A DNA stretch of 32,000 nucleotides. It comes from Acaryochloris marina S15. Its GTDB lineage: Bacteria; Cyanobacteriota; Cyanobacteriia; Thermosynechococcales; Thermosynechococcaceae. Numbering within the stretch: position 1 is the first letter of the stretch; each line of letters starts with the position of its first letter. Shown here piece after piece: positions 5,364 through 31,843 of the stretch. Below the pieces are notes generated by a model that searched no databases, was not told the origin of the DNA, and worked only from the letters and a program-made list of their open reading frames with translations. Made by a program: the position numbers and the translations under genes. Where the stretch lies: the NCBI RefSeq assembly GCF_018336915.1, contig NZ_CP064923.1, positions 2,040,001 to 2,072,000 of the forward strand, read 5' to 3'.

Positions 5364-5846
5364 TGTATCTATAAATGGATATGGAACGATTAACAGCTCA
5401 AAATATTTGCAGGACTAATTTTTAGTTATTCTCAGTAACTAAGTTTTTTTGAGAATAACTATTCAAAAAACTCGCTAATACATCTGAAATGCATTGCTTT
5501 TTGTCGTAATGAATTACGAAATTACCCTAAACCGTAGCTCCCGTTTTTTTGGCTATATAGGAGAAAGTGTCAGCCTTGAGTGTCCAAGATTCCAATTGAA
5601 TATTTTAGAAAAATTTAGTTCTTAAATATTCTGATCTCTGGTTGAAATATCAGGAAAACTCTTTTCAATCGTTAAATATTGAGAATAACGGTCTTGGATA
5701 CTTAGGGATGACACTTTGGTTCAATTCCCTGGTCCTTTTCATCATCAAAGCTTTGGAGTGATGCCCCAATGACAATAAAACCCTGACCTATTCAAAACTA
5801 AAACATTCATCATCTATACCTCGCAGATGTTGTAAGTGAGTAATAA

Positions 5847-5960
5847 CTCGGCGGGCATTCTGACTTTGAGGCTAACACCTCATCACAGTTGCGGGACAGC
5901 GCCGGACTTACACCGAACTTTCCCCTTTTCTTCTAACGGCTGAACCCCGTTAGAACCGAA
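5847..5960 (-). promoter_or_regulatory. Cobalamin (B12) riboswitch aptamer
   Basis: The minus strand reads TTCGGTTCTAACGGGGTTCAGCCGTTAGAAGAAAAGGGGAAAGTTCGGTGTAAGTCCGGCGCTGTCCCGCAACTGTGATGAGGTGTTAGCCTCAAAGTCAGAATGCCCGCCGAG. It contains the conserved GGGAA..GGTG.AA.TCC..GC.G.CCCGC.ACTGTGA core, a B12-box-like AGTCAGAATGCCCGCC, and P1 pairing of TTCGGT with GCCGAG. Confidence 0.8.
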
Positions 5961-7020
5961 TCTATAAAATTGTTTCTGAATACTACCACAAGAATTAAGA
6001 TTAGAAAATGTTTTAGCCTGGGATGAGTTCTTTTAGCCTGCTTCACCTTTCAAGTATTCTGGGTCATTTTACCCAATGTTTATTTGAGCTGCTGCCAATG
6101 GCTATTGAGTGCCACAACTTACCATGAGGTGATGGCCGATGATCCCGACTCTAGCGGAATTAATCCACAAGACTGAAGGCCAATCTAGAAAATAGTTCCG
6201 GTACAAGATCGGTCTTGTTTAGTGTGAAGTCGAGAATCTAGATGATAGTTTTAGGCTCTCTATTTATGTTCTGTTCCCATGCTTTCCATCCACAGAGTAT
6301 AAGGATTGTGCTCCAATCAAACACTGAGTTTAAAGACTGGCAAAGATATCCAAATAGACTTCCATCCCGTTTAATGAAATTAAGTTGTCGCTGAAAGACC
6401 ATATCAGGCATGAATTTCAGCTCTATGACCTGTTTTTATTCGGATCGTTGCCATATCTCTATATGACTCTCAGGTTTTTTGGCCGATGCATGGGTGCTGC
6501 TGCTGATATTTTTTTGATCAAGACTAATAATCTCTCAATCTTATATTTGGTAAGTATTTGAGAATGTATTTGATAATAAATTCTTCTCTAGTAAGACTTA
6601 AATAAATTAATCTTGCCTGTTATAAGAAAAATTCAATCTATTTGAATCTCTTTTCTCGCTTGGGTTGTGGGAGAGCCGAAAACTATTAATTATTTAGATA
6701 CTATTACTATTTTTAAAAGTTAACTTATAAAGGTAATAATTCCAAAAACTAAGGGCACAATACTGGTAACTGAATTTCAAGAGCAGATGAATGGTTGTAG
6801 ATTTTTCTCTACTGCTATTTTTAGTATCAAATGGCACAATAATTCTGTTATATCTCTTTGAGCCAGCATTATTGACTTTCAATTAGTTTTTATTCAGAGA
6901 ATAGGTCAGACTATTCATAGTATCTGAATTGCAACAATTGATACATCAGCTTATTAGTTCTGGTGCCATTCTTGTACAAATTGGTCGGCCTTTATGGTTC
7001 GCGACTATATGTAATTCAGG

Positions 7021-7382: not shown

Positions 7383-9416
7383 CTACTTTACAATTGCAGG
7401 TTCAGATTTAGGCTGTGGCTTGAGGACTTGTTCCACGCGGGCCTGTCCTAAGGAATAGGTCACTGCATAACTGCGAGCGAGTAGGCTTAGCCAAAGTTGG
7501 GGAAAACGCTCTTCCAGTAAAGGCTGCAGCCAGCGAATCATTCGCGGAAACCAGGACCGAAGCAATGCATTGCCGAAGGCATCGACGGTAAAACTCCAAT
7601 AGCTGCCAAGCCAGCGGATTAAGTCTTTGGAACCCACTACGATCCAAATCCACAGGAGTAGAGCGGGATTTATAAAAGCCGCTTTGAGAGCCATCCGATT
7701 GAGGGGAAGCCAGCCAAATCGATCTTTGATAAATGCCTCTGTTACTTCTGGATCTTCTTCCTCTAGGATGCCAAAGAAAGTATTGAGCATAGAATTCACG
7801 CGCTCAGGGGGCAGATGTTTACCCGTGGGTACCATCATCCCTCGTGAAAATAACCAGGTAACGGCCACATTACTTTGGTAGGCCCGAATTTGGTTGAGGT
7901 GTTTTGCCTGTAGCAAATCGTGTTTAAGAGCAGTATCGAGTAAGTCCGTTAACCGGGGGAGGTTGCGGACTAAGGAGCCAAACCCTGTAAAAATCAAGGG
8001 AGATTGCAAGGATGCCGAATCTCCGATCGCAATGAGTCGATCAAATGCGATGGTGCGATCGGAACTATCCAAACTAAAATGTCCTGGGATATAGCCAAAC
8101 GTTGGCTTGATCCAATTCAGGTCATCTAAATCGCAACGGCGGTACTCCGGCAGGATTGTAAAAAAGTCCTCATACATCTCCAGCAAAGAACCGGGATTGT
8201 CGGGATGGACCTGATGGTAATGGAACAGATAGAACGTTAGCTCATCCCCTTTCCCAGGGAATAGCTCCCAAATTAACTGCCGTCCTCGGGAGATATCTCC
8301 GTGGCTATTGAGCACATCCCCATAGCGGGCGTCCCAGACTTCGCGATCTAACCCAGAAATGACTGCCCCCACAGTAGGACAGACGCTGTCAAAGGAACGT
8401 CCCCCATTGAGTTGCCAGGCGATGGGGGAGGCCGTTCCCATCGCGTCTACCAGCAAGCGCCCTGTGACTGTTTTCTCTGTACCACTAGGAAGATGAACGG
8501 TCTGCACACAGGCTGCATCGCCTATATCCACTCGCTGAAATTCGGTTTGGTCCCAAATTTCTCCCCCTGCTTGTCTAAGCTTGTCACCGCATAATCGCAG
8601 CAGCTGTTCCGAGTCAATGGCAATATTGAGAACCGTCGGCGTTGTTAAGACAGGGGCTTGGCACTGGGATGGATTGTTGGCATCAAAGAACTTGTGATAG
8701 CCATCTACATATTCAGAGGCGATCAAACTTTCAAATTCAGCAGGGGTGAACAATCCCAAGTCAATTAGATTAGCAAACTCGCTGCGGGAGATATTCCACT
8801 CCCGATTCATCCGTCCAAACGGTAACCGCTCGATCAGGAGAACGCGATATCCCAGGCGAGCCATGACTGCAGCGTGAATGACCCCGAGGGCACCGCCCAA
8901 ATAAACTAAATCATACTCAGGTGCACTCGATTCAGCGTTGGAAAACACTACTTGCCGAGGTTGCTTAGGTTGGCGGACGCCTTCGCGCCAGCGTTGCTCC
9001 CACCAGTAGGCCCGAGTCAGATCATATTCACCATTCGGAAACCGTTGAAAATATTGAACGGTACGCGGATAATCCTTGGCTAAGGCTGCGAAGATCGACT
9101 CTTGCTCTAAATCAATAGCGGGGGGCTTAGGGTAGTAATAGGGAAAGTGGGTTCTTAACGCCTGCTCTAGTCCTTTAACCAGCTTCTTTTCCTGCGGTAC
9201 TGGCCCAGAACCCCAGCGAAACACCTTGAGATAAGTGGTTCGTTGCAGTGACCATACAACGATGGCCAGTTCGCTAGACTGCCCTGGGAACTGTAACCGG
9301 CAACCGGAAGGTGTCGACCGCTTTTGGCCTGAGGGGTAAGTATAAGAAGATTGCAACCAATGTCTAACAGCGTCAGTATTCGGCGTGGGAATTTCTAAAT
9401 AGGAAAGTTCTTGCAT
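7383..9416 (-). CDS. cruA: FAD-dependent oxidoreductase of the CruA/CruP lycopene cyclase family (CruA-like, with a long N-terminal extension)
   Basis: 677 aa. A dinucleotide-binding motif, DLVYLGGALGVIHAAVMARLGYRVLLIE, follows an N-terminal domain of about 170 aa. The C-terminus is hydrophobic. The overall architecture is remembered from cyanobacterial CruA. Confidence 0.55.
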   Translation of the reverse strand: MQELSYLEIPTPNTDAVRHWLQSSYTYPSGQKRSTPSGCRLQFPGQSSELAIVVWSLQRTTYLKVFRWGSGPVPQEKKLVKGLEQALRTHFPYYYPKPPAIDLEQESIFAALAKDYPRTVQYFQRFPNGEYDLTRAYWWEQRWREGVRQPKQPRQVVFSNAESSAPEYDLVYLGGALGVIHAAVMARLGYRVLLIERLPFGRMNREWNISRSEFANLIDLGLFTPAEFESLIASEYVDGYHKFFDANNPSQCQAPVLTTPTVLNIAIDSEQLLRLCGDKLRQAGGEIWDQTEFQRVDIGDAACVQTVHLPSGTEKTVTGRLLVDAMGTASPIAWQLNGGRSFDSVCPTVGAVISGLDREVWDARYGDVLNSHGDISRGRQLIWELFPGKGDELTFYLFHYHQVHPDNPGSLLEMYEDFFTILPEYRRCDLDDLNWIKPTFGYIPGHFSLDSSDRTIAFDRLIAIGDSASLQSPLIFTGFGSLVRNLPRLTDLLDTALKHDLLQAKHLNQIRAYQSNVAVTWLFSRGMMVPTGKHLPPERVNSMLNTFFGILEEEDPEVTEAFIKDRFGWLPLNRMALKAAFINPALLLWIWIVVGSKDLIRWLGSYWSFTVDAFGNALLRSWFPRMIRWLQPLLEERFPQLWLSLLARSYAVTYSLGQARVEQVLKPQPKSEPAIVK

Positions 9417-22989: not shown

Positions 22990-23071
22990 GGGTCGGTGCC
23001 CGAGTGGTTAATGGGGGCGGACTGTAAATCCGCTGGCTACGCCTACGCTGGTTCAAATCCAGCCCGGCCCA
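22990..23071 (+). tRNA. tRNA-Tyr (GTA), class II with a long variable arm
   Basis: Hand-folded. Acceptor GGGTCGG/CCGGCCC; anticodon arm GCGGA-CTGTAAA-TCCGC; 13-nt variable arm; T-arm GCTGG-TTCAAAT-CCAGC; discriminator A. No encoded CCA. Confidence 0.93.
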
Positions 23072-23084
23072 TTGTCAATAATTT

Positions 23085-23156
23085 GCCCATGTGGCTCAGT
23101 GGTAGAGCACACCCTTGGTAAGGGTGAGGTCACCGGTTCAATCCCGGTCATGGGCT
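23085..23156 (+). tRNA. tRNA-Thr (GGT)
   Basis: Hand-folded. Acceptor GCCCATG/CATGGGC; D-arm GCTC-AGTGGTA-GAGC; anticodon arm CACCC-TTGGTAA-GGGTG; T-arm ACCGG-TTCAATC-CCGGT. Confidence 0.93.
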
Positions 23157-23466: not shown

Positions 23467-24198
23467 ATGAAGCTTAATCAGCTTATTGCTGTCATGCAGT
23501 CAGTGAAAAAAAGAGCTGCAGACGAGAAGACAAAGATATACAAACAGACTCAGAAACCTGAACTATTTCAAGGCTTATCGCGGACCTACTCACCAAAGGA
23601 TGAAGAAGGCCATGTTTATCCCCCGGAATCTCAGAAGGTCACATATAAGGCAGGGGAGGCACTAGAAGCCTTCTCAAAAGCCTGCCAGGACTTATTTGAT
23701 AGTGCTTTAACCCAAGATGAAGCTAATACCTCAGCAAGAGCCAACATAACCTTGGATGACGACACAGTGATTGCGTCCGATGTCCCGGTCACATACTTGA
23801 TGTTTTTAGACAAGCAGTTGACCGATATCAGAACCTTTCTCAGCCATATCCCTACCTTGCCCATTGATGAGGACTGGGAATATGACTCTAACCGAGGATT
23901 TTATGTCACTCGCCCCCGAGAGACCACTAAGACAAAGAAGGTGCAAGAGTTTGTGATTGCTGCTGAGGCAACAGAACATCACCCTGCCCAAGTCAAAGAA
24001 GTTACGAACGATGTGGTTGAGGGGACCTGGTCTTTGGTTAAGTTCTCTGGTGCTTTGCCACAGTCAGAACTAGATGAAATGCGGCTTCGACTTGATGTAC
24101 TTCAAAAAGCTGTAATCAAGGCTAGAGAAGAAGCAAATAGCATCGAAGTAAGTCAAAGAACTATATCGAATAACATTTTTGACTATTTATTTAGGTAA
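23467..24198 (+). CDS. Hypothetical 243-aa protein, unknown function, encoded immediately upstream of two tRNA-like RNA modules
   Basis: ORF with SD GAGAGG 7 nt upstream of the ATG. It is hydrophilic, has helical/coiled-coil-like N- and C-termini, and shows no catalytic motif I recognise. No terminator lies between its stop and the downstream RNA modules. Confidence 0.8.
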   Translation: MKLNQLIAVMQSVKKRAADEKTKIYKQTQKPELFQGLSRTYSPKDEEGHVYPPESQKVTYKAGEALEAFSKACQDLFDSALTQDEANTSARANITLDDDTVIASDVPVTYLMFLDKQLTDIRTFLSHIPTLPIDEDWEYDSNRGFYVTRPRETTKTKKVQEFVIAAEATEHHPAQVKEVTNDVVEGTWSLVKFSGALPQSELDEMRLRLDVLQKAVIKAREEANSIEVSQRTISNNIFDYLFR

Positions 24199-24239
24199 GG
24201 TTAGATTGAGTGTGAGCATAGATTTAGATTCAGTATCTT

Positions 24240-24314
24240 AAAGGTGATTGGATGGTTCAAATCCTCCCTCTCGCACTGATAGGCGAGAGTGTGCTAATTG
24301 GTAAAGCAGCTTTT
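24240..24314 (+). ncRNA. Circularly permuted tRNA-like module 1 (Y-RNA/YrlA-like architecture, degenerate T-stem)
   Basis: Elements in order: AAAGG (24240-44); variable TGATTG; T-arm GATGG-TTCAAAT-CCTCC (3 of 5 bp); acceptor 3' strand CTCTCGC (24268-74); 8-nt loop; acceptor 5' strand GCGAGAG (24283-89); TG; D-arm TGCT-AATTGGTAA-AGCA; G; CTTTT (24310-14). CTTTT pairs back with AAAGG. Confidence 0.5.
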
Positions 24315-24405
24315 GATGCATTAAGACTAAAAAATCAAACTCAGTTTATTGCTCTAGTCTTAATCTAAAATCCACTCTTGTGAATCAACCAAAGTTCAAC
24401 AACAC

Positions 24406-24478
24406 ATGGGATATACGAGTTCAACTCTCGTCCCGCTCCCCAAATCTTGAGCGGGTAGTTTAATGGCAAAACACCCTT
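24406..24478 (+). ncRNA. Circularly permuted tRNA-like module 2 (Y-RNA/YrlA-like architecture)
   Basis: Elements in order: ATGGG (24406-10); variable ATAT; perfect T-arm ACGAG-TTCAACT-CTCGT; acceptor 3' strand CCCGCTC (24432-38); loop CCCAAATCTT, which begins like discriminator plus CCA; acceptor 5' strand GAGCGGG (24449-55); TA; D-arm GTTT-AATGGCA-AAAC; A; CCCTT (24474-78), pairing with ATGGG. A possible outer helix pairs CCACTCTTG (24372-80) with CAAGCAAGTGG (24520-30). Confidence 0.6.
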
Positions 24479-24543
24479 GTATTAAACTGATTGAGCTTTA
24501 ACCGGACATAAAATAGTCTCAAGCAAGTGGCTCTTATACACTG

Positions 24544-24580
24544 AACCCCGGCAGGTGGTATTTGCTGGGGTTTGTCTTTA
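24544..24580 (+). terminator. Rho-independent terminator closing the protein plus tRNA-like RNA unit
   Basis: AACCCCGGCAG (24544-54) pairs with TTGCTGGGGTT (24562-72), including G-U pairs. It is followed by the T-rich stretch TGTCTTT (24573-24579). Confidence 0.7.
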
Positions 24581-24900: not shown

Positions 24901-25377
24901 TTACAACATAATCGTTGTCGCCTCATTCTCATCTAATCGGGATGAGCAACTATATTGAGTGATCTGCGAAAAATCAGCAAAAAATTCCTCTTTATTTATG
25001 AGCCGACTAGATGAATGAAAAACCGCTTTGACCACTCCTCCAAATAAAATTCGATCGCCATTAACTAGAGTGTGACTCTGAACACGGTTGCCATTGACAA
25101 AGACACCGTTGAAACTCGATTTACCATTAACTGTTCCATCAATCAGTTGATATTGATAGGTTCCTTGACTTAAATCAGATATCTTCTCTACAGTTGCATG
25201 GATACGTGAAATCATATCGTTGGCCACTACTATGTCATTAGATGAATCCCGACCAATGGTATATTTCCAATTCATTAATGTGACTATCTTTTTAGGTTTT
25301 GTATTAACAACAAGATAATGATGCTGCTTGAAGTGATGTGTTTGCTGACGCATACTATTTCTATATGTATATACCAA
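24901..25377 (-). CDS. Small stand-alone FHA domain protein
   Basis: The FHA core is IGRDSSNDIVVANDMISRIHATV...NGVFVNGNRV...LVNGDRILFG. The track start at 25377 is a TTG, so the ATG at 25353 (150 aa) may be the true start. Confidence 0.8.
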   Translation of the reverse strand: MVYTYRNSMRQQTHHFKQHHYLVVNTKPKKIVTLMNWKYTIGRDSSNDIVVANDMISRIHATVEKISDLSQGTYQYQLIDGTVNGKSSFNGVFVNGNRVQSHTLVNGDRILFGGVVKAVFHSSSRLINKEEFFADFSQITQYSCSSRLDENEATTIML

Positions 25378-25808
25378 ATACCTGAGTTTTCTTTCGCTTG
25401 AAATACGTAAGACAACTGTTTTTCTATTACAGTGATATTTAGCAAAAATGAACGTGATTTATATCACAGATTTTTTGTCAATATTCTTAAGCCATCTCAT
25501 AAATATAAGCCTGACTTCAAAAAAACTGAGACTATATTCATTCTTAGAAGTTAAACGATTATCCCATTTGGAATCTTCAGCTCAAGATCCATATGATTTC
25601 GCTTATTCTGGCCATGATCCGAAAAAAATAGGATAGTGTATTTCTTAGGGTCAATAGGCTTGAAATTAGCCCTGTACAACTCCACTAACACTTGTAGTTT
25701 GCAGAGCATGAAAGAGCAAATCAATATGATCAACAAATGCCAAGCGATGGCCATGTCTGTAGATTATGGGCAACATTTTTGTTGGGGTTCTGACTCTATA
25801 CAACCCAT

Positions 25809-26138
25809 TCAGTTTGAGTCACTGGCTGTTGGATGATCAGGCGTTTCAGGCGGCGGAACTTTTTGAAGATAAGGCTCCATGGGTACCACAGTTGTCATTT
25901 TGTTGAGAATAGCTTCAATCTCGCTCAGGTATTCACATTGAAACCGATCCTGGGTGGATAAGACCCGCCGTAGAGCATCTATCACAATTTTCTCACAGGC
26001 TTCTGCCGATAGCCCCATTTCACTCTGATGCCCAACTATAAAGTGATGCAAGAAATAGGCGTATCCTCCCGTCATTAAACCCTGTAACAGTGTATTTTCT
26101 TGCCTTAGAGCTTCTAGTTCTTGTTCAAGATTTTCCAT
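25809..26138 (-). CDS. Hypothetical protein (N-terminal coiled coil)
   Basis: 109-aa ORF beginning MENLEQELEALRQENTLLQ. No recognised domain. Confidence 0.5.
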   Translation of the reverse strand: MENLEQELEALRQENTLLQGLMTGGYAYFLHHFIVGHQSEMGLSAEACEKIVIDALRRVLSTQDRFQCEYLSEIEAILNKMTTVVPMEPYLQKVPPPETPDHPTASDSN

Positions 26139-26311
26139 AGTAGTTCGATGAAGGAAGGAGACAATTTACATAATGGTTCAATTCAAATTCTTTCATGAAA
26201 GCTGCTCTGGATGACAATACCAGTACTTCGGTCGTGCTGGTGCTTGAGGATAGTTAGATCAAATTTGTGTAGCTTGGGTCAGTTCTGATTACGATAGATA
26301 AGGCATGACAG

Positions 26312-26935
26312 ATGGAACGAAAGATGATCAAACGCTGGTTTGCGATCGCATTATTGTCTCTAATCACTTGGCTAGGCCCCATAGGCATGGCGGCTGAAGC
26401 CCAAGACCTCGCCAAGGCCACCTTTGCAGGCGGATGCTTCTGGTGCATGGAGAAGCCTTTTGATGTCATCGATGGTGTCGTATCCACTACATCAGGATAT
26501 ACCGGCGGTAAAAAACTGAATCCCACCTATAAAGAAGTATCGTCAGGAAAAACTGGTCATGCCGAATCTGTGCAGGTGGAATATGACCCCAGTAAAGTCA
26601 GCTATGAAACCCTTCTGGAGGCGTTTTGGCAAAATGTTGATCCATTAGATGCCGGGGGACAATTTTGCGATCGCGGCGACCAATACCGCACCAATGTCTT
26701 CTACCATTCAGATGAGCAAAAAGCCCTAGCCGAAAAATCTAAAGCTGAATTAGATAGCTCTGGTAAATTTGCCACGCCCATCGTCACGGAGATTGTCACA
26801 GCAGCAACCTTTTATCTGGCAGAAGACTATCATCAGAACTATTATCAAACCAACTCCAACAAGTATCGCTTTTATCGGTATAGCTGTGGCCGAGATCAGC
26901 GACTCACCAAACTCTGGGGAGAAGAAGATAGCTAG
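26312..26935 (+). CDS. msrA: Peptide methionine (S)-sulfoxide reductase MsrA with a signal peptide
   Basis: 207 aa with the active-site motif GGCFWCME, plus GYTGG and HAE...V.YDP motifs. The hydrophobic N-terminal leader suggests export. Confidence 0.9.
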   Translation: MERKMIKRWFAIALLSLITWLGPIGMAAEAQDLAKATFAGGCFWCMEKPFDVIDGVVSTTSGYTGGKKLNPTYKEVSSGKTGHAESVQVEYDPSKVSYETLLEAFWQNVDPLDAGGQFCDRGDQYRTNVFYHSDEQKALAEKSKAELDSSGKFATPIVTEIVTAATFYLAEDYHQNYYQTNSNKYRFYRYSCGRDQRLTKLWGEEDS

Positions 26936-26974
26936 CACAGTAACTATAGGAGCTAGGCATCAGACCAATTAGAG

Positions 26975-28360
26975 CTAATTGGCTTCTGTACTATCCTCTT
27001 CCTCAAAGATAAACGGAGCAATCTGCTCAGGGTTGTCTTGGAGCAACGTCGCCAACAAAAAACTAGCAATGGTCCAGGTCTGATATTTTCGAGAAGATTT
27101 ACCGACCAAACGCCCATTCTTGCCGTCATAATATTCGGGCCATTCATCTTCTTCAAATCGGTAGGAGGCCGTCATCCAAGCCTGTTCCCCTAATTTTTGA
27201 CGTTTGGTTTTAATGGCAGCCGCCATCAGCATCCACAGCAACACGGGCCAGCTGCCGCCATTGTGATAGGACCAGGGGGTATTTTTAGGATCCGAACCCG
27301 TCGTAATCCGCCACTCTAACCCTTCAACCGCCGGAAAACAGATTTTCATCGGCATCCGCCCAACTAAATCGTCCCACTGTAGTTCAATCAGATCCATGAT
27401 TTGCTGGCTTTGAGTGGAATCAGCCATAGAGGTCATGATGGCCATTAAATTGCCCAAAGCAAAGAAGCGAAAATCCATCCGACTAGGACCTAGATTTCCG
27501 GCTAAATAGCCAGCCCAATCTGGCATCCACTCCGTTAGCCAGTAAGGAATGGAATCCGGATAAATATTGAATTTATTCATCACCGACTCCCCAAATTGAT
27601 CCCCTTTATAGCGATGAATTTCATTCAGTTTGTCTAGATCTAGCCAATAGTAGTTACGCACTCGAAACAGGAGCGCCTGAAGGCGATCATTAATCTTGCG
27701 AATCCAATTCTCTCCTTCTGAGGTGGGTGTCAATAATTCCCTGGCTGACCGCAGGGCCCCATAAAACAATGCTTGAATTTCTAACGGATGGCCATCTATC
27801 CCCATCCGGCGGTCAATCATACAGGCTGCATCAGGCACCAATAAAGTGGGCGACATCTCAAATTGTGAACTGAGGCAAAGCTTGAGAATTAGATGTAACC
27901 CTTCCTGAAAATCGGGCCGCTTTGCTAAAGCAGTATCTCCAGACGCTTTCACATAAGCTCGCAGTACAATAATCCACCATAAACACGAATCAATCGGTGT
28001 CACCCGACCAATCGCATGGTCGCCAAAATCAGCAGTGAGATATTGACGCCCTGCTTCCGTTTGCACTTTAAAACTGGCAGGCATCAATCCTAAAGGAACC
28101 TCAAAACCATCCACTCGCCGAACCTGCTTTTGTAAAGCTAACGTCTCTACCAAAAAATTTTGAACAATATCATGTCGCTTCTGCAGCAAAAAAACGAAGG
28201 CGGAAGGGACAAAATCCCGCACAAAGCACTGATCGTAATTGAGGGCATCCGCGTCTGAATCCTGAGCGGCAATCGTACCTACAGGGCGATCCTGATAATA
28301 GATAATGGCAGACTCATGGAGCTTTTCTGCCATTTGGATAATCGGTAGTTCAGACATCAT
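26975..28360 (-). CDS. Alkaline/neutral invertase (glycoside hydrolase family 100)
   Basis: 461 aa with [14 protein letters not shown], the LMPASFKV region, a [11 protein letters not shown]-type motif and YHNGGSWP, typical of cyanobacterial/plant GH100 invertases. Confidence 0.85.
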
Positions 28361-28478
28361 GCCCTCTCAGACGCAGCTGGTCTAGGTGGGAACAGGGTTC
28401 CAAAACTGATGCTCCCGTTGGATAGTACTCAGGATACCCATCGAGTTGGGAGGATTACTATAGCCGCGTAAACAGCAG

Positions 28479-29705
28479 CTATAGACAGTTTTTTAGAGCT
28501 TGCTGAAGTTCCTTCGCAGTTTGAAAGCGATGATCCGGATGGGGATGGGTCACTTTTTCAATAATGGCTTTGATCTGAGTTGGAATGCTCAGGATATTCG
28601 CCAATTCAATCCGATAGCCATGACCCAGGTTTTTGTAAAATTGCAGTGGACTTTGACCTGTAATCAGGAATAAAAGAGTTGCACCAATACCGTAGAGATC
28701 CGATTGAATCGTGGGACGACCTAATCCCTGTTCTGGTGCACTATAACCCTCAACCGCAATCCGGGTTCCGGGGACAAGGCTTGCTTCTTTAACAGCTCCA
28801 AAATCAATAATAAAAACTTGGCTGTCTCGATTCCGCACCAGAATATTACCGGGCTTCAGATCTCGATGAATGATCGGTGGATTATGACAATGAATGTAGT
28901 CCAAAATGTCACAGGCCTGAATCATCCACTGCAACACCTGATGCGGTGGTAACGGGCCATGCTGATTTACCCACCGATCTAAATCTTGGCCGTGAATCAG
29001 CTCCATCACGAGATATTGTTTATCGTTCTCGGTAAAGAAATCGTATAACCGGGGAATACCAGAGTGCTGGAGAGATCTCAGCATCCGAGCTTCCCGCTTG
29101 AATAATTCCTGTGCCTTAGGAATTTTTTCCATATCGGCATTCATTTCCTTGAGCACCTGAAGCTGAGGTTTTTGACTCTTATCATCCTGGTGCCGCACCA
29201 AGAAAGTGGTTCCCATGCCTCCCATGCCAATGACCTTCATGACTTCGTAAGGACCAAGCGTCTGGAGAACCTTAAGGGATTGACCACAATGCACGCAAAA
29301 AAGGTTGCCTGGCAAATTACCCTCATGGGAGCAGGAAGAATTCTGGGAACGAGTGGTCGCCGATTGACGTTTGGCTCCAATCTGGTAGGGAAGTTGCTGC
29401 TGAAATCTCAAAATCGGCCCCGTCAATCCTAGCTGAATAATTGTGTCATCGTTGAGTTCTGCCTGGTTCGTCAGTTTTCCATTTACAAACGTTCCATTGC
29501 TGCCCAGACTATGGAGTTGCCAGGTAAAGGAGGACTCTAGCTGTTTGCTCAGACGCAGTTCAAGATGATACCGAGACACCAGTATGTCTCTGAGGACAAT
29601 GTGATTATCGGAAGAACGGCCAATATTAATCTGCTTAGACGTGGTGAACAGCCATTGTTTGATAGGAGCCTTATTGGTGGGGTCAAGAAGGGTTAATGTA
29701 ACCAC
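28479..29705 (-). CDS. FHA domain, zinc-ribbon, Ser/Thr protein kinase fusion
   Basis: 408 aa with a GTG start. The N-terminal FHA domain is IGRSSDNHIVLRDILVSRYH...NGTFVNG. A CSHEG...CVHCG ribbon follows. The Hanks kinase domain has GMGGMGTTF, VLKE, HRDLKPGNIL, DFG and APE. Confidence 0.9.
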   Translation of the reverse strand: MVTLTLLDPTNKAPIKQWLFTTSKQINIGRSSDNHIVLRDILVSRYHLELRLSKQLESSFTWQLHSLGSNGTFVNGKLTNQAELNDDTIIQLGLTGPILRFQQQLPYQIGAKRQSATTRSQNSSCSHEGNLPGNLFCVHCGQSLKVLQTLGPYEVMKVIGMGGMGTTFLVRHQDDKSQKPQLQVLKEMNADMEKIPKAQELFKREARMLRSLQHSGIPRLYDFFTENDKQYLVMELIHGQDLDRWVNQHGPLPPHQVLQWMIQACDILDYIHCHNPPIIHRDLKPGNILVRNRDSQVFIIDFGAVKEASLVPGTRIAVEGYSAPEQGLGRPTIQSDLYGIGATLLFLITGQSPLQFYKNLGHGYRIELANILSIPTQIKAIIEKVTHPHPDHRFQTAKELQQALKNCL

Positions 29706-29746
29706 ATTGCAAAATTAATCAGTCAAAGATTTTAAATAGGTTCCCG

Positions 29747-31843
29747 TTAATAGGTCTGGGAAGATCGCTGAGGTTGGACTCTCATCAGGATGGCAATGAC
29801 CGTGATGTTGTCGTGACCATTATGTTCGTTAGCCAGCATAATCAACTCATTAACCCCTTGTTGCAAGGGGATTTGAGAGTTAAGCATGGGCAATAAGTAT
29901 TGGTCACAGTGGACTTCCAATAGGTGATTATCTGTTAATCCATCCGAACAAATCAACCATAAAGTATCTTCGGCGGCAGTGAGGAGCTGGATATCGGGCT
30001 CCAAGGCCTCATTCTCTCTAGGCCCTAGAGCTTGAGTGAGTTGATAAGCATCCGGCCGGGCGTAGGCCACGGTCGGATCGGTTCCTCGTTGAATCTCTCT
30101 TTGCCCAACCTCATGATCAACCGTGATTTGTTCTAATCCTGATTGATGGGTCAGACGATATAGACGACTATCACCGACATGAGCAATTTGAATATGAGTA
30201 TCTTGAACCAAAGCCATCACTAGGGTGGTGCCCATGCGACTATTGCCAGCCTTCTCTTCATTCAACTGAAAGAGAGCATGGTTCGCAGCATAAATGGCAT
30301 CCTTCACCATTGCAGTATCGGGAAACTCAGTCTGCCAATGGGCTTGAAAATATTGAGCTAGGGTTTCTGTCGCTAAAGAACTCGCAATCTCCCCCCCAGC
30401 ATGTCCTCCCATACCATCACAGAGAATGTAGAGTCCTTGGCCAGAAACTTGGTTTTGGTGGGGGTTACAAATTTGTTGGAGCCGTTGATCAATTACAAAG
30501 TAATCTTCGTTGTGATGTCGATCTCGACCATCATCCGTTTGACCTGCCGCTGCCAAATGAACCAACTGATTGGGCAAAATCAGGGTTGGCACAGCACCCG
30601 TTCCAGCAACGGAAGATTGATGAACCTGTGTAGGAGTCGTAGGAGGCTGGGTACTAGGTAAAAGCTGACTTAATTCATTTAAGTATTCCAGAAGCTCTGT
30701 TTGAGTAACGTTCTCAGCAGATTGCAAATTGATCAACAAGGGCTGAAATTGCTCTGAGAGGGAAGCTCCCAATCCTTGCAATAAATCTAACCAGACATAC
30801 CTTAAATCGTCCCAGGTCGGGGATTGGATGGAGGTACTACCCTTTTCAGGCTTACCCGGCCAGAACTGACCGGGCTCAAATAGAAGTTGCTGAAGGCAGA
30901 GGATTTGTCCCTGATCGATCTTTAAGTTTTCTTTGTGGAGAACGCTAGGTAAGCATTGCCAGGGAGAACAAATCACTGCAAAATTCAAAGTTTGTTCTAG
31001 CCAGTACAGAATTTGAGTGGGACTCGTTTGACCTTCGGCAATGACTTCCTTTAAAGACGGCAAATCAGCGCGGTTCTCTAATAAAATGACTGCCTGTTGT
31101 TCTGACTGCCAAGCGTCATGGACATGGGGTAGCAGGAGAGGAAACTGTTGCCTCAGGGCTAGGTATGGTTCTAGAACGATCGGGAACGGCAAAGGCTGCG
31201 CTTCTAAAAAATCTTTAATCGTTTCTGGCTGACCCATGTCAGCAGGATTAATAGCTCCCTCTAACTGGTTCAACATAATAGCCAGGGGCGAGACCTGCAG
31301 CGGCTGCGTATCTAGAATAGTGAGCTCAAGGTTGCCATTTTCCGCAAGTTTCGGATCTTGAGGCACCATTGATGCTAAGAGCTGATATCGAGGGTTTTGA
31401 TCCAAAAAACTCTGGATAGCAGGAGACATGGATGGAATATCTGAGTCACCCCGCTGCGGTAACACTGCTGTTGAGGCACTAGGTGGATCGAGTTTCACAG
31501 CGTCTGATCGATCTGGCTGATCACCTACTAAACGCTCAATGGAGTCTAGCAGCTCTTCTGTAGAGGGTTCGTCATCCAGAAGGGCAACGGGTTCTCCAAC
31601 GGGAATCGTATCGATAGAAGAAAGTTCTATAAGGCTCGGGGATTGTTCGAGGCTAACGAGCGGTGTAATTAGAGTCCACCAAATGGTTCCGGTCAAATGA
31701 TCACATTGGGGACAGTGGGTAACTTCAAAATCTACTAAATGTCCACAACTTGCACAGTGTTTTTGAGTAAGGGAAGTGCCACATTGTTGACAGAAACGAT
31801 GATCGTCAATGTTGTGGTAATTACACTGGGGACATTTAATCAT
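29747..31843 (-). CDS. Double zinc-ribbon, uncharacterised middle region, PP2C-family Ser/Thr phosphatase
   Basis: 698 aa. The N-terminus has CPQC..17..CQQCG and CASCG..10..CPQC. The C-terminal PP2C motifs are RDRHHNEDY, LCDGMGGH, GTT, VGDSR, SDGL and DNIT. Confidence 0.85.
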   Translation of the reverse strand: MIKCPQCNYHNIDDHRFCQQCGTSLTQKHCASCGHLVDFEVTHCPQCDHLTGTIWWTLITPLVSLEQSPSLIELSSIDTIPVGEPVALLDDEPSTEELLDSIERLVGDQPDRSDAVKLDPPSASTAVLPQRGDSDIPSMSPAIQSFLDQNPRYQLLASMVPQDPKLAENGNLELTILDTQPLQVSPLAIMLNQLEGAINPADMGQPETIKDFLEAQPLPFPIVLEPYLALRQQFPLLLPHVHDAWQSEQQAVILLENRADLPSLKEVIAEGQTSPTQILYWLEQTLNFAVICSPWQCLPSVLHKENLKIDQGQILCLQQLLFEPGQFWPGKPEKGSTSIQSPTWDDLRYVWLDLLQGLGASLSEQFQPLLINLQSAENVTQTELLEYLNELSQLLPSTQPPTTPTQVHQSSVAGTGAVPTLILPNQLVHLAAAGQTDDGRDRHHNEDYFVIDQRLQQICNPHQNQVSGQGLYILCDGMGGHAGGEIASSLATETLAQYFQAHWQTEFPDTAMVKDAIYAANHALFQLNEEKAGNSRMGTTLVMALVQDTHIQIAHVGDSRLYRLTHQSGLEQITVDHEVGQREIQRGTDPTVAYARPDAYQLTQALGPRENEALEPDIQLLTAAEDTLWLICSDGLTDNHLLEVHCDQYLLPMLNSQIPLQQGVNELIMLANEHNGHDNITVIAILMRVQPQRSSQTY

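Follow-up and report, generated by a model that had tools for sequence, protein, structure and literature searches.

Downstream of a gene of the DUF7873 family in the cyanobacterium Acaryochloris marina S15 we identified a structured RNA of ~370 nucleotides (nt) that carries two permuted tRNA-like domains, and the gene and the RNA proved to be a conserved pair in bacteria and phages. Both are encoded on the plus strand of a 32,000-nt stretch of DNA (contig NZ_CP064923.1, positions 2,040,001 to 2,072,000), which is called the window below; positions refer to the window unless they follow a locus number. The two components are very probably coupled in function. Our preferred reading, which we consider probable, is that they constitute one two-component unit, most likely a ribonucleoprotein (RNP) that follows the Y RNA plan and is independent of Ro60. 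Judged from comparisons between genomes, a physical RNP of the DUF7873 protein and the RNA is likewise fairly probable. The original prediction, made from the letters of the window, had proposed that a tRNA-mimicking RNA is paired here with a protein other than Ro60. This proposal found support, as homologues of the protein in seven or more bacterial groups, Actinomycetota among them, and in phages were followed by the same modules with abundant compensatory base changes. Neither Rfam 15 nor the searchable literature contained a description of such a pair, subscription-only papers lying outside the search.

The association was followed in 80 loci from species-representative genomes, 80 from metagenomes and 80 from IMG/VR, which together with cultured phages gave 243 related loci (locus numbers with the prefix L are given where needed). 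The gene and the RNA were nearly always adjacent and on the same strand in these loci, which represent at least seven phyla; the genome loci belonged to cyanobacteria, Streptomyces, Nocardia, Actinomadura, Chloroflexota, Myxococcota, Planctomycetota, Deinococcales and Abditibacterium (Armatimonadota). Past almost every DUF7873 open reading frame (ORF), a scan for T loops returned a pair of GTTCRANYC motifs with a spacing of about 150 nt, and a rule-based parse placed behind each T arm an acceptor hairpin of 7 bp, the U8/N9 positions and a D arm. A covariance model built from 109 homologous modules of other genomes, termed R1, detected two modules in 86 of the loci L001-L099 and a single one in another 11, with 2 loci lacking a match; the modules always adjoined the gene on its own strand, and L100-L243 followed the same pattern. 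In L086, which was negative with R1, the RNA was present with an insertion of ~210 nt in an acceptor loop. The reverse approach gave a matching result. A degenerate 18-mer taken from the RNA scaffold hit nine sites in IMG/VR, six of which carried R1 modules, and all six adjoined a DUF7873 gene; the remaining three had neither modules nor DUF7873 and were chance matches.

By construction, R1 also gives false matches at the junctions of tandem tRNA genes, such as positions 23037-23115 of the window (29.4 bits), and these were left out of the counts. Tandem tRNA genes imitate the permuted order since the 3′ half of one is followed by the 5′ half of the next, and the modules could conceivably have evolved in this way. 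A third and weaker R1 match (33-34 bits) was seen right past module 2 in L245 (2214-2324, minus strand) and L247 (1028-1139, plus strand); an additional module or a tRNA junction may account for it.

The protein-coding surroundings of the pair were not conserved, as judged from an all-against-all BLAST of the ORFs of 80 loci, in which high-GC loci yielded spurious antisense ORFs, and from a Pfam census of the 150 nearest neighbours. Flanking genes differed even between Streptomyces species.

The alignments, made from 30 to 61 homologous regions, showed that conservation reaches from just past the stop codon to a terminal hairpin. In the window this corresponds to an RNA of ~366 nt with predicted ends at 24214 and 24579 and a z-score of the minimum free energy of -3.1. 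Scanning the window and 18 further loci at gathering threshold returned no Rfam 15 family for this RNA. The two permuted modules recognised in the original prediction were found with the positions and stems given there, and both are parts of this single larger RNA with its scaffold and terminal hairpin. The first half, unit A, consists of a closing helix P1, a small hairpin, a CUGA/UCAG helix and an anticodon-like stem, and is capped by module 1. P1 encloses the unit by pairing GAGCA (24214-24218) with UGCUC (24350-24354), the latter inside the conserved motif UUAUUGCUCYAG. CUGA motifs resembling box C/D elements were considered and rejected; they are helix strands. Module 1 (24240-24314), identified by R1, by ARAGORN after un-permuting and by covariation, comprises an anticodon-like stem (24240-24244/24310-24314), a T arm (24251-24267), a closed acceptor hairpin (24268-24289) and a D arm (24292-24308). 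Its acceptor stem (CTCTCGC/GCGAGAG, 7 bp) and D stem (TGCT/AGCA) are perfect, while the T stem (GATGG/CCTCC) is degenerate with three of five pairs, just as had been noted before.

In the second half, unit B, helices a, b and c and an anticodon-like stem make up a long stem, which is interrupted by the conserved loops AUCGAC, UUAAACG and GCGCAAAUGG and capped by module 2. Its 5′ strands (24372-24399) are a, CCACU (24372-24376); b, CUUGUG (24377-24382); the conserved loop AAUCAACC (24383-24390); and c, AAAGUUCAA (24391-24399). The 3′ strands (24491-24530) contain c′, UUGAGCUUU (24491-24499), the cyanobacterial motif AACCGGACAU (24500-24509), b′, CUCAAG (24518-24523), and a′, AGUGG (24526-24530). 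Module 2 (24405-24479) was recognised by the Rfam YrlA model in addition to R1, ARAGORN after un-permuting and covariation. It is composed of an anticodon-like stem (24405-24410/24474-24479), a T arm (24415-24431; stem ACGAG/CTCGT), an acceptor hairpin (24432-24455; 7-bp stem CCCGCTC/GAGCGGG, loop C-CCA-AAUCUU) and a D arm (24458-24472; stem GTTT/AAAC). R1 scored 51.2 bits for this module (E 1e-12) and 39.5 bits for module 1 (24241-24314; E 4e-9). The terminator expected at the 3′ end was also present: the hairpin CCCCGGCA...UGCUGGGG at 24546-24570, with a GG-N-UA loop, is followed by the U-tract UUUGUCUUU at 24571-24579. A terminator scan missed it because its loop is longer than 8 nt. The GG-N-UA loop (CUGGAUACG, AGGCUAGC, GGUGGUAUU) was kept across phyla in GC-rich and AT-rich homologues alike, which suggests that the hairpin has a role beyond termination.

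The structure was examined for covariation, which spoke against the view that the RNA is mere debris. Over 61 diverse RNAs, 95.4% of the cells were paired at the 46 pairs of the RNAalifold structure, which was derived from the same alignment on which the pairs were counted, and both-sided changes occurred at 44 of these pairs (727 cells). None of 500 shuffles reached the observed level, and slid controls were paired at 48% at most. When module 1 was counted separately in 46 sequences, the T stem was paired at 98.7% and the acceptor stem at 99.4%. In helices b and c every RNAalifold pair showed compensatory changes. The MAFFT alignment lost the register of P1, helix a and the anticodon-like stems, so that P1 was not counted formally and these helices were assessed by eye; a column-pair scan on that alignment was too noisy. 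Inspection by eye did reveal compensatory examples in all of them, the P1 variants being GAGCG/CGCUC, GGAGUA/UACUCC, GGGUGAA/UUCAUCC, GGCGCAA/UUGCGCC and GAAGUG/CACUUC. If the RNA were a non-functional remnant of tRNA genes or an att site, or acted purely in cis as a 3′ untranslated region (UTR) that stabilises or terminates the DUF7873 mRNA, one could understand why it lies directly past the ORF without a terminator in between, why two tRNA genes adjoin it and why the T stem of module 1 is degenerate. However, the massive covariation across phyla already contradicts this idea, and loops and scaffold are conserved as well. Decayed att-site fragments are thereby rejected as an explanation. Moreover, the RNA persisted next to DUF7873 proteins of only 30% identity, several taxa show a putative separate promoter for it, and in L083 and L084 it lies upstream of the gene. 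A remnant or a purely cis-acting element is therefore extremely improbable.

A promoter scan located the putative promoter of the A. marina RNA in the 3′ end of the DUF7873 ORF, at 24179-24207 on the plus strand and 6 nt ahead of P1. It resembles sigma-70 promoters, with a -35 box TTGACT, a 17-nt spacer and a -10 box TAGATT. By eye, comparable -10 boxes were recognised 6-8 nt ahead of P1 in L002, L017, L021, L022, L064 and L082, and actinobacterial loci have a strong hairpin after the DUF7873 ORF. These promoter boxes, the actinobacterial hairpin and the two loci with the RNA upstream favour an independent RNA gene over a 3′ UTR. While the earlier observation that no terminator separates the ORF from the RNA was correct, the RNA is more than a mere tail of the operon: it probably has a promoter of its own.

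We then consider how closely the modules imitate tRNA. When each module was cut at its acceptor loop and re-joined in tRNA order with an artificial 7-nt loop, ARAGORN called tRNAs in 138 of 140 module 1 constructs and 139 of 140 module 2 constructs (277/280), including both modules of the window. In their native order the module sequences were called neither by ARAGORN nor by the Rfam tRNA model RF00005, and the only native tRNA calls in the window were tRNA-Tyr and tRNA-Thr. Modules 1 and 2 can be told apart consistently as separate families, the D arm being UAGCCCAAC.UGGCAGAGGC in module 1 and UAGUUCAAAGGAAGAAC, or UAGCUCAAU.GG.AGAGC, which is closest to YrlA, in module 2. Acceptor stems are of 7 bp in both. 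The acceptor loop begins with ACCA in 46 of 128 module 1 copies and with N-CCA in 42 of 128 module 2 copies, and other acceptor loops carry insertions of 60-210 nt. Such CCA starts and long insertions would be expected if RNase P and 3′ trimming removed the acceptor loop.

Conceivably, the modules could be functional permuted or split tRNA genes whose products are ligated into decoding tRNAs, as in Cyanidioschyzon merolae. All tRNA elements except the anticodon loop are there, N73-CCA is often encoded, and ARAGORN accepts the re-joined sequences. The lack of an anticodon loop is nevertheless difficult to reconcile with decoding: the strands at the anticodon-stem position run into the long covarying helices b and c. 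In addition, the native sequences were not called, and the acceptor stems vary freely, so that there is no fixed aminoacyl identity. Module 1 can even be replaced by a simple hairpin. We regard decoding tRNAs as a highly improbable explanation. Permuted two-piece transfer-messenger RNA (tmRNA) of cyanobacteria, alpha- and beta-proteobacteria has a similar order of T arm, acceptor 3′ strand with CCA, intervening segment and acceptor 5′ strand. The RNA described here differs from it in having genuine D arms and neither a tag reading frame nor a series of pseudoknots. The ARAGORN search for permuted tmRNA and the Rfam cyanobacterial, alpha and beta tmRNA models found nothing in the window, and this candidate was rejected.

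The closest known counterpart is YrlA, the bacterial Y RNA that accompanies the Ro60 orthologue Rsr, as the original prediction had anticipated. In both systems the permuted order is the same (variable region, T arm, closed acceptor, D arm), and the tRNA-like domain sits atop a long stem of flanking strands. Both RNAs adjoin a dedicated protein gene on its strand, tandem RNA units occurring with rsr as well (YrlA/YrlB), and both are found in tRNA/tmRNA islands of actinophages. The models also recognise each other's RNAs. The Rfam YrlA model (RF02553) matched module 2 at 24393-24500 with 30.6 bits (E 1e-4), and L034 and L243 with 36.9 and 31.3 bits, all below its gathering score of 69. R1 in turn gave 32.7 bits in mycobacteriophage Bxz1 for the YrlA region, located 190 nt upstream of the Ro gene, and we take the tRNA-like domains of the two RNAs to be of one kind for this reason. 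The likeness extends to M. smegmatis YrlA, in which a 7-bp acceptor stem is likewise closed by a loop and cutting by RNase P and the addition of CCA have been observed in vivo (PMC4201824). The DUF7873-linked RNA often has a discriminator plus CCA in this loop and tolerates long insertions there, as expected of an excised segment. Whereas processing has been demonstrated for M. smegmatis YrlA, cutting at both modules would here leave an RNA of three base-paired pieces.

These similarities raise the possibility that the RNA is simply a divergent YrlA that binds Ro60 in the ordinary way, with Rsr encoded elsewhere or supplied by the host, and with DUF7873 as a mere accessory or a neighbour by chance. 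The permuted architecture and the sub-threshold Rfam match to module 2 are compatible with this, as are the occurrence of GCCGAACG at one fixed position of the unit-B 5′ strand in 8 of 61 RNAs and the placement of phage Ro-YrlA systems in similar tRNA islands. Yet YrlA is characterised by an rsr gene within 4 kb on the same strand, the Ro-contact motif GNCGAAN0-1G and the tRNA-like domain (PMC4201824), and of these hallmarks only the last was found. In agreement with the original prediction, Pfam detected neither TROVE nor RtcB in the 20 largest ORFs of the window, and no TROVE protein was present among the 150 nearest neighbours of 135 non-redundant loci. The Ro-contact motif was not conserved, occurring in 15 of 61 RNAs where 11.4 were expected from shuffles, and it was absent from the window and cyanobacterial RNAs. 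There are further differences from YrlA: here both tRNA-like domains reside in one ~370-nt RNA with its own scaffold motifs and terminal hairpin, and the partner is a protein with neither a TROVE nor a vWA domain and no detectable similarity to Ro60. The tight linkage to DUF7873 across phyla would remain unexplained by a hidden Rsr.

A tblastn search of 50,697 GenBank phages found DUF7873 in 75 records, always annotated as hypothetical, with Pseudanabaena, Gordonia, Arthrobacter, Rhodococcus, Microcoleus, Rhizobium, Vibrio, Klebsiella, Serratia and Ralstonia as hosts. R1 modules follow the gene in phages GodonK, Ziko, Pam2 and Mimi, and one module lies downstream of a DUF7873 homologue of 30-34% identity in Rhizobium phage RHph_TM16 and Vibrio phage D505. 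Small hypothetical coding sequences are annotated over the RNA in GodonK (gene 151; L241 4994-5122), Ziko (genes 125-126; L243 3720-4188) and D505 (genes 0061 and 0060; L253 3278-3520), and these are probably mis-annotations. In the IMG/VR loci, tRNA genes were found within 5 kb in 39 of 80 cases and three or more of them in 21, with up to 36 in one locus; altogether there were 249 tRNA or tmRNA genes in 764 kb. Throughout the 240 genome, metagenome and IMG/VR loci, 279 of 281 tRNA/tmRNA genes had the orientation of the DUF7873 gene. Gene 152 of GodonK, which encodes DUF7873, is located centrally in a tRNA array, and gene 144 of Mimi just behind one. A tmRNA gene inside a tRNA island was seen ~1.1 kb from DUF7873 in L170 (3479-3876), and L227 has one within its ±5-kb locus.

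Ro occupies a comparable place in Gordonia phage Mareelih, where a Ro-like gene heads a tRNA/tmRNA array. Among the Gordonia phage records, 12 carried DUF7873 and 11 carried Ro, and no record carried both. These equivalent positions and the complete separation in Gordonia phages indicate that the Ro and DUF7873 systems are alternatives. The absence of Ro from complete Gordonia phage genomes with DUF7873, and of DUF7873 from those with Ro, speaks against an Rsr partner. Furthermore, the host genera named for Ro-positive phages, one genus being unnamed, include none of Pseudanabaena, Arthrobacter, Klebsiella, Serratia, Rhizobium, Ralstonia and Microcoleus, seven host genera of DUF7873 phages. 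An ordinary Ro60-binding Y RNA is thus quite unlikely.

We turn to the protein. Its gene was confirmed as an ATG ORF at 23467-24198 on the plus strand, encoding 243 residues with an isoelectric point (pI) of 5.2. It had been thought to lack any recognisable domain, which proved incorrect: residues 2-242 match PF25283 (DUF7873), a Pfam family of unknown function, with 320 bits against a cutoff of 27 (E 1e-95). The family is uniform, with a single domain of ~245 residues, and comprises 2083 clusters at 90% and 2647 at 50% identity. NCBIfam, PHROGs and PADLOC gave no matches to the protein, and a profile search of PDB sequences had no match below E 0.1. Its membership in the Ro60/TROVE family is contradicted by the absence of a Pfam TROVE match and by its size, since Ro60 consists of a TROVE HEAT-repeat ring plus a vWA domain and has ~500-550 residues. 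The AlphaFold2 model was confident (predicted local distance difference test 87, predicted template modelling (TM) score 0.71) and shows long helices and a long beta-hairpin in an alpha/beta fold. When compared with PDB and BFVD by Foldseek, it gave no match with E below 1e-3. Ro60 was missing from the top 50 matches. Weak matches to Cas7/Cascade recurred among these (E 0.009-0.2, TM at most 0.16), and Cas7-type subunits made up about half of the weak top PDB matches; this resemblance is a lead only.

A compact gene with an adjoining RNA could also be a selfish or defensive cassette, such as a type III toxin-antitoxin or abortive infection system, in which the RNA would neutralise DUF7873 or sense for it and the tRNA shape would serve as stabiliser or bait. 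The patchy distribution over phyla, the variable flanks even in Streptomyces and the occurrence on chromosomes and phages would suit such a cassette, and so would the occasional RlaP RNA-repair genes nearby. But PADLOC returned nothing, and whereas ToxIN-like systems have identical repeats in tandem upstream of their gene, this RNA lies downstream and combines two modules of different families on a conserved scaffold. The phage copies, placed in tRNA arrays on the tRNA strand, point to a function in translation or tRNA biology instead of a toxin. We consider a cassette of this kind unlikely.

RlaP-like nucleotidyltransferases (PF10127) were observed beside DUF7873 in 4 of the 240 loci, namely L166 (3968-4927), L134 (3-470), L004 (5584-6543) and L175 (1322-2269). 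In two of them RlaP lies directly upstream of the DUF7873 gene on the same strand and ends 32-74 nt away, and in the other two it is nearby; in L004 it is downstream. RlaP repairs RNA by adding 1-2 nt to 3′ ends (bioRxiv 10.64898/2025.12.29.696909), and these neighbours are a weak hint at RNA 3′-end biology.

Within our preferred reading of a Ro60-independent RNP, the following mechanism can be envisaged. The RNA would be made as a stand-alone transcript of two helical units, each ending in a tRNA-shaped elbow of T arm, closed 7-bp acceptor and D arm. At the anticodon-loop position the RNA would continue into the conserved scaffold, and the conserved hairpin would close its 3′ end. The tRNA machinery of the cell would handle the tRNA-like domains: RNase P would open the acceptor loops, the 3′ ends of the modules would be trimmed or extended to N73-CCA as in M. 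smegmatis YrlA, and their T and D loops would be likely to become modified. By analogy with YrlA, we hold the chances of RNase P and CCA processing to be about even. DUF7873 might bind the non-tRNA scaffold with its loops AUCGAC, UUAAACG and GCGCAAAUGG, or else the elbows. The particle could then act on the integrity or surveillance of tRNA, either as a tRNA decoy or as an adaptor that joins DUF7873 with enzymes recognising tRNA. A phage would benefit because translation would be kept running, and the niche would be that of Ro-YrlA in other actinophages.

From the comparative evidence, a role in tRNA-centred conflict or quality control is a tentative suggestion, which we hold with somewhat less than even confidence. 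Phage tRNAs are known to counter defences that target tRNA, as T5 tRNA-Tyr does with retron Ec78 (bioRxiv 10.1101/2023.03.15.532788), and Septu cuts tRNA-Tyr (PMC13096335). The DUF7873 units of phages resemble such counter-defence arrays in being embedded in tRNA genes on the same strand, sometimes together with a tmRNA gene. They differ in that the chromosomal units lie outside tRNA arrays, and a counter-defence role of the unit is hypothetical. It is possible, again rather below even, that the units form a previously unrecognised class of RNPs in many phyla and phages, which would replace Ro60-Y RNA in phage tRNA islands and use processed tRNA look-alikes as decoys or adaptors in conflicts over tRNA integrity, with an effector of a new fold.

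Several observations weigh against an RNP of this kind. One locus, L004, has a DUF7873 gene and no RNA, the sole true lack in L001-L099. The double tRNA mimic is not obligatory, because module 1 can be lost: it was replaced by a short plain hairpin in Streptomyces loci L012, L029, L038, L041, L042, L045, L049 and L053 and deleted in Actinomadura chibensis (L009), although P1, the scaffold and module 2 were retained in these RNAs. The tRNA-island setting is specific to phages, chromosomal loci showing no enrichment with 11 tRNA genes in 638 kb. The DUF7873 protein is acidic, as is the family with a median pI of 5.6, and has one clear basic patch, at residues 146-160. It also has many invariant charged residues and could be an enzyme or act on other proteins instead of binding RNA. 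Neither the PDB profile search nor Foldseek against PDB and BFVD gave a match that provides a biochemical handle on it. Finally, what speaks for binding, expression and processing is comparative in nature.

With regard to its genomic setting, the A. marina unit has dnaB, rplI, tRNA-Tyr and tRNA-Thr on its upstream side and, on the downstream side, genes for an FHA protein, msrA, an invertase, an FHA-kinase and a PP2C phosphatase, all of them ordinary chromosomal genes. The closest genomic relative, Acaryochloris marina MBIC11017, has a protein with 96% identity and the same genes on its flanks. The AT-rich surroundings and the tRNA neighbours had been taken as a sign of mobility. Locally this did not hold, as no integrase was found at the locus and the housekeeping setting is syntenic with MBIC11017; the attention to the tRNA setting was justified insofar as that setting is meaningful in phages. 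The GC content falls to 31-39% over 24.0-25.8 kb. The two tRNA genes are located at 22990-23156 on the plus strand with 13 nt between them, and a cluster of an FHA protein, an FHA-Ser/Thr kinase and a zinc-ribbon PP2C phosphatase extends over 24901-31843 on the minus strand. Elsewhere in the window, also on the minus strand, a cobalamin riboswitch (RF00174, 52.4 bits) was detected at 5833-5975, and an ORF of 677 codons at 7383-9416 had no Pfam match at E 1e-3.

Bacterial Y RNAs that mimic tRNA have so far been defined by their Ro60 partner, and here the same RNA design is found with a protein that is unrelated and of unknown fold. The distribution of the unit is wide: the protein forms at least 2,600 clusters at 50% identity and was seen in seven phyla or more, as well as in cultured phages of Gordonia, Arthrobacter, Rhodococcus, Pseudanabaena, Rhizobium and Vibrio. 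If our reading is true, a domain of unknown function would gain a testable partner and function, Rfam would gain a large and well-supported RNA family that it is missing, and phage annotations with spurious small ORFs over the RNA would be corrected. The SEA-PHAGES systems GodonK, Ziko and Mimi would make the role of the tRNA-shaped domains tractable, a question that is open for YrlA too, and it would become possible to test whether phage tRNA islands carry dedicated machinery for tRNA surveillance or decoy.

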